Below are positions 86 through 20,058 of a DNA stretch of 64,000 nucleotides, piece by piece (position 1 is the stretch's first letter; each line of letters starts with the position of its first letter). The stretch lies in NCBI RefSeq assembly GCF_039541115.1, contig NZ_BAABFP010000008.1:186001-250000 (forward strand). The letters are read 5' to 3'. This DNA comes from Angustibacter luteus (GTDB taxonomy: Bacteria > Actinomycetota > Actinomycetes > Actinomycetales > Angustibacteraceae). The position numbers were made by a program, and so were the translations under genes. The notes below the pieces were generated by a model. The model was not told the origin of the DNA. It ran no database searches and saw nothing but the letters and a program-made list of their open reading frames with translations.

Positions 86-748
86 TCAGCGGGGCCCGCG
101 CAGCCGGTCCAGCAGCGGCAGCCAGTAGGTCAGCGCCGGCAGGTCCGCCAGCTCCTCGGCCGCCGCCCAGCGCAGGGGCTGCTGCTCCGCCAGGGCGGCG
201 ATGAGCTCGGCGGGGCTGACCCCGCGCAGCGCGACGTGCAGCTTGCGGCTGGCGGGCTCGGGACCGAACCGTGCACGCAGGTGGCCGAGCGGCTGACCGC
301 GCTGAGGGTCGGGGAGCGCGGGCAGTGCGTCGTCGGCCAGCGCGAACCGGCCCCCGGCCCGGGCCAGCAGGGCCACGCCGACCGTGGTGTCCGCCGGTGG
401 CCCCAGCCGCGAGGCGATGACGTCGACCCGGTGCGGGCCGACGTCGGGCAGCAGGTGCCCGTCCGGCCAGGTGCGCAGGACGCGTTCGCCCTTGCGCTTG
501 GGCACCCGCAGCCCACTGCGCTGCAGGCCGAGCAGCAGGTCGCGCCCGGCCACCGCGCGGGCGCCGGCCGCGACCAGGGCGTGGTACCGCTCCTGGGGCA
601 CGTCGTAGTGGTCGCCCTCGAACGCCCGCCGCGGCACCCCGGCGGCGGCGGCGAACGCGTGCAGCTCCTCGTACGACACGTCGCTGACCAGGTGCGACCA
701 GAGGCGGCCGTGCGCCGGCCACGCGGGAGGGTCGATGAGGACGGCCAC
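86..748 (-). CDS. DUF4031 domain protein with C-terminal extension
   Basis: VLIDPPAWPAHGRLWSHLVSDVSYEELHAFA...RRAFEGDHYDVP is the DUF4031 pattern. GTG at 748 lies 6 nt after a TACGCT -10-like hexamer, consistent with a leaderless start. Confidence 0.85.
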   Translation of the reverse strand: MAVLIDPPAWPAHGRLWSHLVSDVSYEELHAFAAAAGVPRRAFEGDHYDVPQERYHALVAAGARAVAGRDLLLGLQRSGLRVPKRKGERVLRTWPDGHLLPDVGPHRVDVIASRLGPPADTTVGVALLARAGGRFALADDALPALPDPQRGQPLGHLRARFGPEPASRKLHVALRGVSPAELIAALAEQQPLRWAAAEELADLPALTYWLPLLDRLRGPR

Positions 749-855
749 CAGCGCAGCGTAGGTGAGCCCGAGCCTGTGGATGACCGCAGCGCGGTCGTCG
801 CGACCTCCCCTAGCGTCGGAGGGACACACCCAGCAGGACGACGAGAGGGGCCTTC

Positions 856-1146
856 ATGAGCAGCCAGTTCCAGGTCGACACCGACCGGATCAGCGGCGCG
901 AGCGGCACCGTGCAGCGGATCGGCGCGGACATCGACAGCGCCGTCAGCCGGATGACCAGCGAGCTCACCGCGCTGCAGGACGCCTGGCGCGGCGAGGCGT
1001 CCGGCCGCTTCCACGCGGTCGCGGTCGAGTGGCGGGGGACGCAGGTGCGGGTGCGCGAGGCGTTGGACCACATCGGCCAGCTGCTCGCCCAGGCGGGGCA
1101 GCAGTACGCCGCCGCGGAGCAGCAGAACGCCGCGATGTTCCGCTGA
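856..1146 (+). CDS. WXG100 (ESAT-6-like) type VII secretion target
   Basis: 96 aa, helical, central W-R-G motif, C-terminal YAAAEQQN (YxxxE), preceded by a GAGAGGGG RBS. Confidence 0.92.
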   Translation: MSSQFQVDTDRISGASGTVQRIGADIDSAVSRMTSELTALQDAWRGEASGRFHAVAVEWRGTQVRVREALDHIGQLLAQAGQQYAAAEQQNAAMFR

Positions 1147-1242
1147 GCCGGACTCACTGTCGGGGTCCGTTCACGCCAGGGTCGGCGTGGCGACACCTAT
1201 CGGCGGCGCGAACCGGGTAGAAAGGTGGTGGCACCACGCGAA

Positions 1243-1277
1243 CGAGGCCCCTCCAAGTATGAGTTGGAGGGGCCTCG
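1243..1277. terminator. Intrinsic terminator hairpin, possibly bidirectional
   Basis: Perfect 14-bp stem CGAGGCCCCTCCAA-gtatgag-TTGGAGGGGCCTCG between the WXG100 gene and the candidate minus-strand RNA. Confidence 0.85.
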
Positions 1278-1561
1278 CGTGTGCGTCGCCATGATCACCT
1301 GGCCGGCGAACCGACCCTGCCATCACCCGGGATGACGCCCGCCGCGTCCGGCCTATCCGACAGCCGAGGCCACCGGGACTCCGAACGACGTGCCACGCTC
1401 GACCAGGCCCGTGCGCTCCCGACGTCTCGTCATCGACGTCGCCCGCTCGGCAAGCCGCTCGGGGGTGGAGCACCGGTCTCCTGACCGCCCACCTCAGTCT
1501 GCTGTCGGCGCCTTCCGCTCGGGTTGCCCCGGTCTTCCGGCCCCGCATGCGTTCTGCGGTG
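1243..1561 (-). ncRNA. Candidate ~320-nt structured non-coding RNA, family not recognised
   Basis: No credible ORF. Upstream TTGCGC-N18-TAGAAA(T) promoter-like element. Minus-strand hairpins CGGG-GCAA-CCCG (1520-1531), CGG-CUUG-CCG (1448-1457) and GGUCGG-UUCG-CCGGCC (1301-1316). Ends in a 14-bp terminator. Confidence 0.65.
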
Positions 1562-1567
1562 TGGGAG

Positions 1568-1598
1568 ATTTCTATCCTCCGATCCGACTGCCGCGCAA
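1568..1598 (-). promoter_or_regulatory. Putative sigmaA-type promoter of the candidate ncRNA
   Basis: -35 TTGCGC (1598-1593), 18-nt spacer, -10 TAGAAA(T) (1574-1568). The -10 is an imperfect TANNNT match. Confidence 0.5.
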
Positions 1599-1649
1599 GG
1601 GTTTTGGCGAGATCTCGTCGGAAGAATTTTGGCCGGGTCGCCGCCGGCT

Positions 1650-1792
1650 TGTGGATCATCCTGTGGACCAGGTGTGGATCACATGTGGACGACGAACCGG
1701 CCGTGGGACGGGAGTGGCGTCCCCCAGCGCGCCGCCGTCCCCTGCCGTCATCAACAGGCTGTGGACGCGCTGGGGACGACCGCTGTGGACAA
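1650..1792. repeat. Cluster of DnaA-box-like 9-mers (TGTGGAYNN)
   Basis: TGTGGATCA 1650, TGTGGACCA 1662, TGTGGATCA 1673, TGTGGACGA 1684, TGTGGACGC 1760, TGGGGACGA 1771 and TGTGGACAA 1784. The last is the exact reverse complement of TTGTCCACA. Confidence 0.7.
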
Positions 1793-1804
1793 TCGCGGGG
1801 AACA

Positions 1805-1841
1805 CCGAACCCCCTGTCCACCATGTGGACAGGGGGTTCGG
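1805..1841 (-). terminator. Intrinsic terminator of groEL2
   Basis: 17-bp perfect inverted repeat CCGAACCCCCTGTCCAC-cat-GTGGACAGGGGGTTCGG about 35 nt after the groEL stop, followed by TGTT on the minus strand. Confidence 0.85.
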
Positions 1842-1875: not shown

Positions 1876-3582
<1,707 letters not shown>

Positions 3583-3623: not shown

Positions 3624-3650
3624 GTAGCACTCACGTCGTGCGAGTGCTAG
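3624..3650. promoter_or_regulatory. CIRCE element (HrcA operator) 1
   Basis: GTAGCACTC-N9-GAGTGCTAG upstream of groEL; consensus is TTAGCACTC-N9-GAGTGCTAA. Confidence 0.95.
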
Positions 3651-3658
3651 GTCAATGA

Positions 3659-3685
3659 TTAGCACTCGGCACCCCCGAGTGCAAA
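3659..3685. promoter_or_regulatory. CIRCE element (HrcA operator) 2
   Basis: TTAGCACTC-N9-GAGTGCAAA, in tandem with the first, as is typical of actinobacterial groEL2. Confidence 0.95.
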
Positions 3686-3733: not shown

Positions 3734-4192
3734 ATGAGGCTGAGCAGCCGGGACTGGACCCGTCGGGTGGTGAACGTGCTCACGTTGGCCACGCCGGTCG
3801 GGCTGGCCCTGGCCAGGTCGGGCCACGCCCGGCTGGTGCCCGGGCCGCGCGGCACCTGGGTGGCCACCGGCTACCGCTCCCGCTTCCCGGCTCCGCGGGC
3901 CCCCGCGGTGACGATCGGGGACGTCGTCCTGCTCCGGCTGGACGACGAGCGCCTGGCCCGCCGCCCGCTGCTGCTGACCCACGAGTCGCGGCACAGCGGC
4001 CAGTGGGCGTGCTGGCTCGGCATGCTCGGGTTCCCGGTCGCGTACGGGGTGGCCAGCCTGCTGTCGTGGTGGAAGGTGCGGGACTTCGCGCTGGCCAACG
4101 TGTTCGAGGTGCGCGCCGGACTGGTCGAGGGCGGGTACCTGAGACCGGGCGAGTCGGTCAGCTCGGGTAGTCGGCGCCCAGCACCGCAGTGA
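3734..4192 (+). CDS. Conserved hypothetical protein with HExxH motif (possible DUF4157/zincin-like)
   Basis: AVTIGDVV...LLTHESRHSGQW...NVFEVRAGL pattern. Start could be ATG 3725 or 3734. Confidence 0.75.
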   Translation: MRLSSRDWTRRVVNVLTLATPVGLALARSGHARLVPGPRGTWVATGYRSRFPAPRAPAVTIGDVVLLRLDDERLARRPLLLTHESRHSGQWACWLGMLGFPVAYGVASLLSWWKVRDFALANVFEVRAGLVEGGYLRPGESVSSGSRRPAPQ

Positions 4193-4724
4193 CCCGGGAC
4201 GAGCCGAAGTCCGCGGACTCCTGCACCGCGGCGGGGCTGCCCAGGTCGTCGGCGACGGCCTGCGCCGTCGCCTGCAGCGAGCCCTTGCCGTAGAAGATCG
4301 TCGTGCCGGTGACGGAGCCGGTGTAGTTGCCGGTGCTCCGGATCGTCCAGCCCGCGTTGCGCAGCTTGGTCGCCGCACCGGCGGCCAACCCGCCGCGCTT
4401 GGTGGCGTTCAGCACCGCGACCGGCTGGCTGTGGTCCACCGTCGGCGTCTGGGTGGTGCTCGCGGACTTCGTGCTGGTCGGTGAGGCGGTCTTCGTGCTC
4501 GACGAGGACTTGGTGGAGGTGCCCTTGGTCGTGGTGCCGGTCGCCCCCGAGGTCACGCCCGTGTTCGAGCTGGCCTCATCGGTCCCGCCGCCACCCCACC
4601 AGCCGGTGGCCCACACCACGATCAGCACGACCGCCACGGCCGCGACCAACCAGGGGACGGCACCGGCCGGGCCCAGGCCCGGTGGACGGTGCGCGCCGCG
4701 GCGCTCGTGGAACGTCTGGCTCAT
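4158..4724 (-). CDS. LytR C-terminal domain membrane protein
   Basis: Single TM helix, S/T-rich linker, then VAVLNATKRGGLAAGAA...GNY...TTIFY...VLGADY. Directly follows DUF3263. Confidence 0.9.
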   Translation of the reverse strand: MSQTFHERRGAHRPPGLGPAGAVPWLVAAVAVVLIVVWATGWWGGGGTDEASSNTGVTSGATGTTTKGTSTKSSSSTKTASPTSTKSASTTQTPTVDHSQPVAVLNATKRGGLAAGAATKLRNAGWTIRSTGNYTGSVTGTTIFYGKGSLQATAQAVADDLGSPAAVQESADFGSSRVTAVLGADYPS

Positions 4725-4743: not shown

Positions 4744-5058
4744 TCAGACCTTCATGCCGAGGCGACGGGCCGAGCGGGCCCGCTGACGCGAGGCGCGCAT
4801 GCGGCGCAGCCGCTTGACCAGCATCGGGTCGAGCTCCAGCGCGTCCTGCCGGTCGATCAGCGCGTTGAGCACCTGGTAGTACCGGGTGGCGGACATGTCG
4901 AACAGCTCGCGGATCGCCTGCTCCTTGGCGCCGGCGTACTTCCACCACTGACGCTCGAAGGCCAGGATCTCGGCGTCCCGCTCGCTCAGGCCCGACGCCT
5001 CGCCCACCCCGGCAGAGCCGTGGCCAGCGGTGCGGGGGTCGGTCGTCGCGGCATCCAT
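4744..5058 (-). CDS. DUF3263 domain protein
   Basis: LSERDAEILAFERQWWKYAGAKEQAIRELFDMSATRYYQVLNALID...DPMLVKRLRR signature. Start at 5058 or 5064. Confidence 0.93.
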   Translation of the reverse strand: MDAATTDPRTAGHGSAGVGEASGLSERDAEILAFERQWWKYAGAKEQAIRELFDMSATRYYQVLNALIDRQDALELDPMLVKRLRRMRASRQRARSARRLGMKV

Positions 5059-5134
5059 GCCCACCAGGGTAGACGGTGAACCACACCGATGTCATTCGAC
5101 CCGCTGGGTGAATGCCAGCCCCTGCGCCAACCCC

Positions 5135-18840: not shown

Positions 18841-19250
18841 CCAAGCAGGCCCGAGGTGATCAGGCCGTGGCCGGCGGGCACCGCGGCCGGGTCCGCACCG
18901 ACGTCCACGACCCGGTTCTCGGCGTCCACGAACACCACGTCCGGACGGCGCCCGCGGGCCTGCGCGTCCTCCAGCAGCCCGTAGGCGATGACGATCACGA
19001 CGTCGCCGCGGTGCACGAGGTGCGCGGCCGCGCCGTTCACGCAGACCACGCCGCTGCCGCGCTCGCCCTCGATCACGTACGTGGTCAGCCGGGCGCCGTT
19101 GGTGACGTCGACGACGTCCACCTGCTGGCCGGGCAGCAGCCCGGCCGCGTCCATCAGGTCGAGGTCCAGGGTCAGCGAGCCCACGTAGTGCAGGTCCGCA
19201 TCCGTCACGGTCGCTCGGTGGATCTTGCCCAACAGCATCGGCCGCAGCAT
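18837..19250 (-). CDS. panD: Aspartate 1-decarboxylase
   Basis: [12 protein letters not shown] autocleavage site, [15 protein letters not shown]. Confidence 0.97.
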
Positions 19251-19287
19251 GGGGCGAGGTTACCGGGCGGCCTGCCACACTGATCGG

Positions 19288-20058
19288 GTGGACCCAGCGG
19301 AGCCGACGACGGTCACCTGGTGGGGTCACGCGTTCGTGGCGCTGACCATGGACGGCACGACGATCCTGATGGACCCGTTGCTGCGCACCCGGATCGGGCC
19401 GCTGCACAACACCGGCCCGGTACCGGACGTCGCCACCCTGGGCCGGGTCGACGCCGTCCTCATCTCGCACCTGCACCGCGACCACCTGGACCTGCAGTCG
19501 CTGCGCCGGCTGCCGCGCGGGGTCACGCTGGTGGTGCCAGAGGGAGGTGCCGACCTGGTCCGTCGACGCACCGGGCACACCGTGCGCGGGGTGCGGCCGG
19601 GTGCCCAGGTGGACGTCGGCGCGCTGCAGGTCAGCGCCACCTACGCCGACCACGACCCGCGGCGGGGCAAGGGCCAGCTGCAGTCCGACCCGCTCGGCTT
19701 CGTCATCGCCGGCAGCGACCGCGTCTACTTCGCCGGTGACACCGAGTCGTTCGACGGGATGCGCCGGCTCGGCCCGCTCGACCTGGCGCTGCTGCCCATC
19801 GGCGGGTGGGGTTTGACCCTGGCGGAGGGGCACATGGACCCCGAAGAGGCGGCGCAGGCCATCGGGTTGCTGCACCCGAGCTACGTGGTGCCGATCCACT
19901 ACGGCGACCTGCGCATCCCCGTCCTCTGGCGGTGGCGGGCGGCCCGCCGGGCCCACGCGGCCGCCGGCTTCGCGGCCCTGGCCCGGGAGGCGTACGCCGG
20001 GTGCACCGTCGTGGGGCTGGCGCCCGGCGAGAGCTGGGACCTCCCCCGACACGGGTGA
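19288..20058 (+). CDS. MBL-fold metallo-hydrolase (UlaG-like)
   Basis: SHLHRDHLD, YFAGDT, LLPIGG, HMDP and PIHYG motifs. Confidence 0.92.
   Translation: MDPAEPTTVTWWGHAFVALTMDGTTILMDPLLRTRIGPLHNTGPVPDVATLGRVDAVLISHLHRDHLDLQSLRRLPRGVTLVVPEGGADLVRRRTGHTVRGVRPGAQVDVGALQVSATYADHDPRRGKGQLQSDPLGFVIAGSDRVYFAGDTESFDGMRRLGPLDLALLPIGGWGLTLAEGHMDPEEAAQAIGLLHPSYVVPIHYGDLRIPVLWRWRAARRAHAAAGFAALAREAYAGCTVVGLAPGESWDLPRHG
20042..20058. promoter_or_regulatory. Palindromic site TCCCCCG-N3-CGGGTGA (candidate activator box)
   Basis: Lies 22 nt before GATCGT (20081-20086). Same motif and spacing as the sites at 23497 and 58813. Confidence 0.55.

Follow-up and report, generated by a model that had tools for sequence, protein, structure and literature searches.

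A structured non-coding RNA gene downstream of groEL2 in Angustibacter luteus belongs to an uncatalogued RNA family of the class Actinomycetes

The genes for a WXG100 protein and GroEL of Angustibacter luteus converge on a gap of 729 nt, which raises the question whether the gap holds a gene of its own and what its product may do. The window analysed here is a stretch of 64,000 nt (contig NZ_BAABFP010000008.1, positions 186,001 to 250,000), and all positions without further label refer to it. An earlier reading of the letters alone (the sequence-only reading) had described this gap and its convergent neighbours correctly, and had proposed an independently transcribed, structured RNA of ~320 nt on its minus strand, with ends at 1561 and ~1240. 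The features of the locus are as follows.

86-829, minus strand: DUF4031 gene, which stays near the RNA gene in two families
856-1146, plus strand: WXG100 gene, identified by a Pfam match
1147-1875: intergenic gap of 729 nt, from the WXG100 gene to groEL
1242-1562, minus strand: ncRNA gene of ~320 nt with +1 at A1562, placed by RNA contigs, adapter joins and homologues
1568-1598, minus strand: promoter with the -35 element TTGCGC (1598-1593), an 18-nt spacer and the -10 element TAGAAA (1574-1569) followed by T, without T at -7
1602-1630, minus strand: A/T tracts upstream of the -35 element
1650-1832, minus strand: array of DnaA-box-like 9-mers at 1650, 1662, 1673 and 1684 (tandem, 12, 11 and 11 apart), 1784 (perfect TTGTCCACA) and 1824
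1805-1841, no strand assigned: groEL2 terminator hairpin, placed from sequence, which separates groEL2 from the RNA promoter
1876-3504, minus strand: groEL (groEL2)
4158-4724, minus strand: LytR_C gene
4744-5064, minus strand: DUF3263 gene

RNA contigs covering parts of the gene were found in all four metatranscriptomes examined, which came from four studies (soil, plant, soil and sediment). Contigs with 0-1 mismatch span 1257-1562 and pieces of the 3' hairpin extend to 1242; together the contigs span 1242-1562 and are confined to these limits, although strand, level and true ends are not readable from contigs. In one run (X2) sequencing adapter was joined to contigs at 1562 and 1242/1244, close to the ends that had been predicted, and contigs in the other runs ended earlier (1545, 1522), as fragments can. 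No RNA contig in any of the four runs covered 1579-1824. The contigs might in principle stem from carried-over DNA, but the flanks have next to no cover. The +1 position A1562 follows TAGAAA at a distance of 7 nt. The promoter-like TTGCGC-N18-TAGAAAT of the sequence-only reading is present at 1598-1593 and 1574-1568, and a sigma-70 scan of the gap scored 0 promoters because the -10 element has no T at -7. Two strong terminators had also been claimed, at 1805-1841 and 1243-1277; both palindromes exist, but neither carries a canonical U-tract, and a consensus scan of the gap returned 0 terminator-like sites. The stem of the groEL2 terminator (1814-1832) itself holds DnaA-box-like 9-mers. Two ordinary CIRCE-like inverted repeats lie upstream of groEL2 at 3625-3685, which we take to be the HrcA operator.

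ORFs of 67 aa (plus strand) and 217 aa (minus strand) overlap the RNA gene. They had been regarded as noise, and this view held: their frames are not conserved and no ORF is common to 17 long-form homologues. Most indels among homologues (117 of 134) are not multiples of 3, and in 9 of 9 tested members the folding z-score of the sense strand was lower than that of the antisense strand. On these sequence comparisons the gene is confirmed as a non-coding RNA. The window contains no tRNA or tmRNA and gave no Rfam match near any gathering score, nor did 20 homologous loci and three Kribbella-type loci. As the sequence-only reading had supposed, it is not tmRNA, RNase P or Ms1; each of these genes was found elsewhere in the genome, tmRNA on contig C7 and RNase P on C9.

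The minus strand of the gene folds better than shuffled sequences (z=-2.99, 0/100 shuffles as good), and the plus strand does not (z=-0.88). Without the 3' hairpin the z-score of the window is only -1.37 (17/200 shuffles as good), so that the claim could not rest on folding energy by itself. What decides it is conservation, covariation and the confinement of RNA contigs to 1242-1562. The predicted structure consists of the following elements.

1490-1561, minus strand: 5' domain, in which P1 (1561-1554/1497-1490) encloses a GNRA hairpin (1531-1520)
1400-1487, minus strand: core domain with P2, a GGAGAC internal loop, P3, P4 and a three-way junction with P5 and P6
1487-1480/1407-1400 (P2), 1463-1442 (P5) and 1441-1420 (P6), minus strand: core helices
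1428-1433, minus strand: loop L6, AUGACG, 5' partner of a kissing pair
1328-1341, minus strand: hairpin P9, whose loop CGUCAU (1337-1332) is the 3' partner
1301-1316, minus strand: hairpin P10, with the loop UUCG here and other loops in homologues; 76% of cells paired
1243-1277, minus strand: 3' hairpin P11 of 14 bp with the 7-nt loop CUCAUAC (1263-1257), a probable terminator and the hallmark of the family

In the 17 long-form homologues, 90% of 1224 structure cells pair and 31 of 74 pairs show two-sided change, in a structure that was derived from the window sequence and with relatives that are not independent. Short forms (21 sequences of ~180 nt) gave the same picture for the common core, with two-sided change in 31 of 54 pairs. 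None of 500 shuffles reached the observed pairing and slid controls paired at 33-47% as against 90%, though these statistics overstate the case because the genomes are related. Core helices pair in 90-99% of cells per helix in the long forms, the GGAGAC internal loop is conserved, and the covariance model R1 gives the core of the window 80 bits. For P1, 96 of 119 cells are paired (80.7%) with two-sided change in 3 of 7 pairs, and for the GNRA stem 85.1% of cells. The kissing pair (1433-1428/1337-1332) has 6 bp, all of which pair in the 17 long forms and 98.4% in the 21 short forms. Four distinct Watson-Crick versions of it (AUGACG/CGUCAU, GUGACG/CGUCAC, GCGACG/CGUCGC and UUGACG/CGUCAA) occur among 38 loops with a partner; three have none. 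P11 is 100% paired in the long forms, with two-sided change in 4 pairs and an invariant loop.

In the predicted fold the hairpins end in the loops GCAA, CUUG, GAUGACGA, CGUCAU, UUCG and CUCAUAC. Three hairpins with tetraloops described as extra-stable sit where the sequence-only reading had placed them and are indeed part of the minimum free energy fold, as is a 7-bp stem at 1420-1441; the description fails for UUCG, whose loop is closed by G-C here. The extra-stable UUCG form needs a C-G closing pair. The loop letters of the tetraloop hairpins differ among the 17 homologues. A proposed 5' hairpin at 1543-1559 pairs in 55 of 69 cells, but its compensatory change is not clear and it competes with the long-range P1. 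The sequence-only reading had missed the kissing loops, the conserved loop of the 3' hairpin and the DnaA-box array (1650-1832). Its central proposal, an independent structured RNA of ~320 nt, is supported by covariation in the relatives and by the RNA contigs, which cannot prove the strand. Transcription within the predicted boundaries, a multibranched covarying core whose three-way junction is clamped by a kissing-loop pair, and a sequence-conserved 3' hairpin are demonstrated or nearly so.

The consensus of the family promoters (76 rows) comprises two A-tracts, at distances of 5-7 and 12-20 nt before TTG, then TTGYGS, 17-18 nt and TA[GC]A[AC][AC]T. Position 6 of the -10 element, which was left free in the search, is A in 54, C in 22 and T in 0 rows, and position 7 is T in 68. 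Upstream regions of tRNA and tmRNA genes have a canonical TANNNT in 40 of 55 cases and the family-type -10 in one of 55. The promoter pattern matched this genome six times, once with an A-tract. Two weak Ms1 loci have the same -10 type as the family promoters, and the Ms1 loci of the mycobacteria-like family f70 carry TA[CG]A[AC]A, without T(-7), 17 nt behind TTG in 5 of 5 cases. At these five Ms1 promoters (L230-L234) a palindromic TGTGA-N6-TCAC-like site, presumably of CRP type, overlaps the -35 element and spacer. We take the A/T tracts at 1602-1630 to be UP-element-like, resembling the E. coli UP consensus.

The actinomycete DnaA box is given as TT(G/C)TCCACA in PMC4285127, and DnaA acts on promoters as activator or repressor according to PMC8203912. 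DnaA-box-like 9-mers occurred 2.6 times per 250 nt upstream of the family genes, as against 0.075 downstream and 0.037 in random sequence (n=80). At least one box lies upstream of 86 of 105 family promoters; the other 19 have none within 260 nt. This genome has only 11 clusters of at least three boxes, and the six-box array at 1650-1832 ties for the largest. Other clusters lie upstream of dnaA, between dnaA and dnaN, and in front of two genes read from sequence as dnaB and nrdR. Further clusters outside oriC (G000 C8:133756, C8:487896, C8:612459, C4:241116 and C5:853155) may belong to a candidate DnaA regulon. Boxes on the opposite strand are phased to the -35 element at 10.8 bp (R=0.77, 0/2000 register-shuffled controls); boxes on the same strand, the orientation of the window's own array, are not phased family-wide (R=0.18, 402/2000). 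Clustered boxes positioned to a promoter, as at a DnaA-regulated promoter, were thus found. The identity of the boxes rests on motif and company, from which we strongly infer that DnaA would control the promoter. The paralogues L022, L058 and L066 lack DnaA boxes and carry repeated GACACGCC motifs upstream instead.

A search for relatives by BLAST detected the gene in all five genomes of the genus as well as in other families; of 61 genomes 19 gave any match, a number which includes many short or chance pieces. Within the order the 3'-hairpin pattern matched 26 of 301 genomes, with 0 control matches. In GTDB it matched at least 119 loci, nearly all of them in Actinomycetota among the matches listed; carriers among these are Nocardioidaceae, Kribbella, Streptosporangiaceae, Frankiaceae, Jatrophihabitantaceae, Nanopelagicales, Phycicoccus, Kineosporia and others. 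In a sample of the class Actinomycetes 79 of 301 genomes were positive by eye (98 matching at one mismatch minus 19 without self-complementary matches), of which 25, also counted by eye, have two to three copies; the gene is single-copy in A. luteus. No hairpin was found in 186 genomes outside the class, in 12 genomes of f70, which has true Ms1, or, in self-complementary form, in 14 genomes of f51 (Streptomyces-like by inferred taxon); divergent loops would be missed in all of these searches. Failure to find the hallmark in the mycobacteria-like and Streptomyces-like genomes sampled would explain why the family was missed.

The 128 distinct promoter-to-hairpin units range from 63 to 790 nt, with 54 at 160-200 nt and 25 at 290-345 nt. 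Searching with the promoter pattern only matched 12 of 301 genomes, and the same stem follows 130-460 nt downstream in 12 of 12. Minimal members (L071, L102 and L184) of 63-66 nt consist of a small 5' stem and the terminal hairpin only; in members of 63-70 nt (these three and L131) the 5' stem has a GA-rich internal loop. All subfamilies retain the promoter and the 3' hairpin. Their bodies are not alignable with confidence: R1 scored other subfamilies at 13-18 bits, within noise, and the unity of the family therefore rests on promoter, hairpin and boxes, not on the body. For the subfamily without kissing loops MAFFT/RNAalifold gave no resolved alignment of the body, and therefore we claim no structure there. 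The one new match of R1, L246 (E 1.5e-3), was dropped since it lies in a coding region.

Among 82 scanned of 181 flanking ORFs there was no universal neighbour gene, and only 3 of 60 loci include a tRNA. In some relatives the upstream neighbour is groEL, in most lineages it is another gene; the link to groEL2 and WXG100 is lineage-specific, and groEL, WXG100 and DUF4031 represent local synteny. As the flanking genes change between lineages, the gene is confirmed as a stand-alone RNA gene. At L119, L213 and L215 two complete family genes lie near each other, each with its own promoter, and at L215 with a solo hairpin between them. Solo hairpins also occur behind unrelated genes, at loci where relatives carry the whole gene, and are probably its remnants. 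In a Saccharibacteria bin a ribosomal-protein-like gene is followed by a perfect hairpin of the family type with an identical loop (L072:1501-1529, minus strand), which has neither promoter nor body and is there by chance or transfer. The literature found does not describe the family, and the main text of two GC-IGR papers contains no actinobacterial term; the family may still be listed in the supplements of large screens (such as PMC11109978, PMC8632094 and PMC5737381). These results confirm an RNA family, uncatalogued to this extent, across the class Actinomycetes and dominant in soil lineages.

What all members share at the RNA level is the 3' hairpin. Its stems vary across the family while the loop stays, and at L131 two different stems carry one and the same loop. 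Of 81 hairpins at 80 loci, 75 form pairs at 10 or all of the 11 positions, of which the pattern fixes only 6-7. Loop counts are mostly selected by pattern, since 116 of 128 come from patterns requiring the loop. The loop-unbiased set consists of the 12 genomes found with the promoter only, where the loop is CUCAUAC in six, UUCAUAC in one and unrelated, without CAU, in five, all of family f62. L188-L192 of f62 have the same promoter, boxes and stem, with the loops UGCCUAG, CGCCUAG and CUCUUGG. The variants UUCAUAC, CUCAUGC, CGCAUAC and GUCAUGC all retain CAU. All three CAU tRNAs of this genome have the loop CUCAUAA, to which CUCAUAC is identical at 6 of 7 positions. The anticodon-loop pattern Y-U-anticodon-R-N fits the window and 7 of 12 loop-unbiased members and does not fit 5 of 12; CGCAUAC breaks the U33 rule, and the loop has C38 where the genome's own tRNAs have A38. 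Intramolecular pairing of the loop was rejected, as its complement occurs in only 4 of 108 bodies.

The best reading, which we put forward tentatively, is that the RNA is a decoy which binds a protein by its CUCAUAC loop and is gated by DnaA. The gene is independent, and its folded RNA of ~320 nt, which would be abundant, belongs to the new Actinomycetes-wide family. Judged from the boxes, DnaA bound upstream probably gates the promoter, which would be activator-dependent given its A-tracts and missing T at -7, and would tie the RNA level to DnaA state and to growth or replication. For the next step the chances seem about even: the variable, hairpin-rich body may be a stabilising scaffold and the exposed 3' loop the working part that titrates a protein. 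A loop-binding decoy is favoured because all subfamilies keep promoter and 3' hairpin, because members of 63-66 nt exist, and because of L131 and the CAU-like loop. The replacement of the loop in f62 and the pattern selection behind most loop counts speak against it, and common descent might be enough to explain why the hairpin, as a plain terminator, is conserved. Since the loop follows the pattern Y-U-CAU-R-N, the lead candidate for a ligand, itself doubtful, would be a reader of the CAU anticodon loop of tRNA-Met/Ile2 (MetRS, TilS or an anticodon nuclease).

CsrB and RsmZ are protein-decoy RNAs with repeated GGA in hairpin loops. The new RNA would act much as CsrB or 6S do, though by another handle. 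It resembles CsrB/RsmZ in its variable number of small hairpins, its several paralogues and the proposed titration, but where these have repeats it has one conserved terminal loop; no hairpin loop of the predicted fold contains GGA. The genome has csrA. With the raiA motif, OLE, ROOL and GOLLD the family shares the character of orphan, GNRA-rich, pseudoknotted bacterial RNAs, from which it differs by the absence of an Rfam match, by far more variable length and by a conserved part that is promoter plus 3' hairpin. The raiA motif occurs in Actinomycetota (PMC10861870). A bacterial Y RNA was rejected, as this 100% complete genome has 0 TROVE (Rsr) matches.

The RNA could instead bind RNA polymerase (RNAP) like Ms1, 6S or CoRP, as a second, DnaA-controlled RNAP reservoir and possibly a very remote Ms1 paralogue, which we consider unlikely. 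The sequence-only reading had hinted at such a role by placing the RNA in the size class of RNAP-binding RNAs; the range of lengths in the family, the multibranched fold and the separate Ms1 of this genome weaken the hint. Ms1 is defined by RF02566 and synteny with HAD hydrolase, CpaE and 6C (PMC9130861), needs a central bubble and binds the RNAP core (PMC4191392; PMC6582537). The family shares with Ms1 (RF02566; MTS2823, scr3559) the actinobacterial host, a stand-alone gene of ~230-300 nt with its own promoter and 3' hairpin, and the T(-7)-less -10 element, which is unlike tRNA promoters; the two modal length classes and the layout of 5' domain, central domain and 3' hairpin would also suit an RNAP binder. 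Against this, DnaA boxes are absent at 7 of 7 Ms1 loci, and kissing loops, the CUCAUAC loop, the range of 63-790 nt and paralogues are found in the new family only. The fold is multibranched, with no rod and central bubble; the neighbours (groEL, WXG100 and DUF4031) are not those of Ms1; RF02566 did not match the window while its positive controls were found; R1 found no match at five Ms1 loci; members are as short as 63 nt; and the conserved loop is left unexplained. With an Ms1 profile the best family member had E 8.2 and none exceeded reversed controls, while the genome's own Ms1 had E 7e-5 and that of G327 E 8.5e-4. Remote homology, which the core stems had suggested by looking superficially like the Rfam consensus, is not supported by these searches.

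The syntenic Ms1 of this genome sits elsewhere (G000:C4 ~18875-19300; L038:1233-1650), where a 6C RNA (53.7 bits) and a CpaE/Ssd-like gene lie beside it. Its RF02566 match is weak (23 bits), far below the Rfam cut-off, and it is therefore unannotated by default. The search of families f34, f73 and f71 with RF02566 found no Ms1 and was uninformative. 6S RNA (RF00013) had no match in window or genome; it too is an abundant structured RNA, whose size the modal ~185-nt forms overlap, but the multibranched fold does not mimic an open promoter. In PMC11077062 CoRP is confined to Corynebacterium and lies between tRNA genes, unlike the new family, and scr0792 is an RNAP-binding RNA of ~85 nt, which shows that short binders exist; as described there, neither fits as the identity of this gene.

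An improbable alternative is a base-pairing sRNA whose loop would be a seed on AUG start regions, similar to loop pairing by 6C RNA. CUCAUAC is complementary to GU-AUG-AG and is the sole conserved single-stranded stretch not bound into structure. The full 7-mer, however, stands at a possible start in only 2 of ~3065 crude ORFs of this genome, seven loop nucleotides on a 14-bp stem make a short seed, and pairing would not need the heavy, tertiary-like conservation of the body. 6C RNA (RF01066) is likewise an actinobacterial sRNA with its information in hairpin loops, but it has two C-rich loops and the new RNA one CUCAUAC loop; it was rejected as the identity of the gene, since 6C is the RNA next to Ms1.

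Quite improbable is a functional unit made of DNA, that is, a cluster of boxes outside oriC titrating DnaA as datA does, with the RNA gene modulating it by transcription. The size of the cluster, as large as any in the genome, and the 11-bp spacing of the tandem boxes would fit; the phasing of boxes to the promoter, the separate selection on RNA structure and loop, and the paralogues without boxes do not. A non-autonomous mobile element or a repeat borne by phage or plasmid is very improbable and already disfavoured: variable neighbours, two to three copies in 25 of 79 positive genomes and the tandem copies at L119, L213 and L215 are set against a single copy here, a position kept within genera and families, plasmid and phage searches without match, one viral pattern match without promoter or body, and no transposase among 82 flanking ORFs. 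For practical purposes a 3' UTR or terminator region of groEL2, or a small protein gene, is already refuted and has next to no probability left, as the overlapping ORFs of 67 and 217 aa and the occasional groEL neighbour face unconserved frames, a conserved promoter, other upstream genes in most lineages and absent RNA cover between 1579 and 1824.

Few conserved trans-acting RNAs are known in Actinobacteria (Ms1, 6C and housekeeping RNAs), and this family is present in about a quarter of the sampled Actinomycetes, including the cultured hosts Kribbella, Nocardioides, Kineosporia and Phycicoccus. It offers a candidate DnaA-controlled RNA gene and a promoter class common with Ms1. Its sizes of 63-790 nt form a natural deletion series that points at one 7-nt loop, and the loop replacement in f62, as a natural specificity switch, could reveal the partner. 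In its most specific and rather unlikely form, suggested by the loop letters, the DnaA-gated decoy would present a mimic of the CAU (methionine/lysidine) anticodon loop on an exchangeable scaffold, and would titrate a protein handling tRNA-Met/Ile2 or shield against an anticodon nuclease. If true, such a mimic would couple the start of replication to translation supply in actinomycetes other than the model genera.
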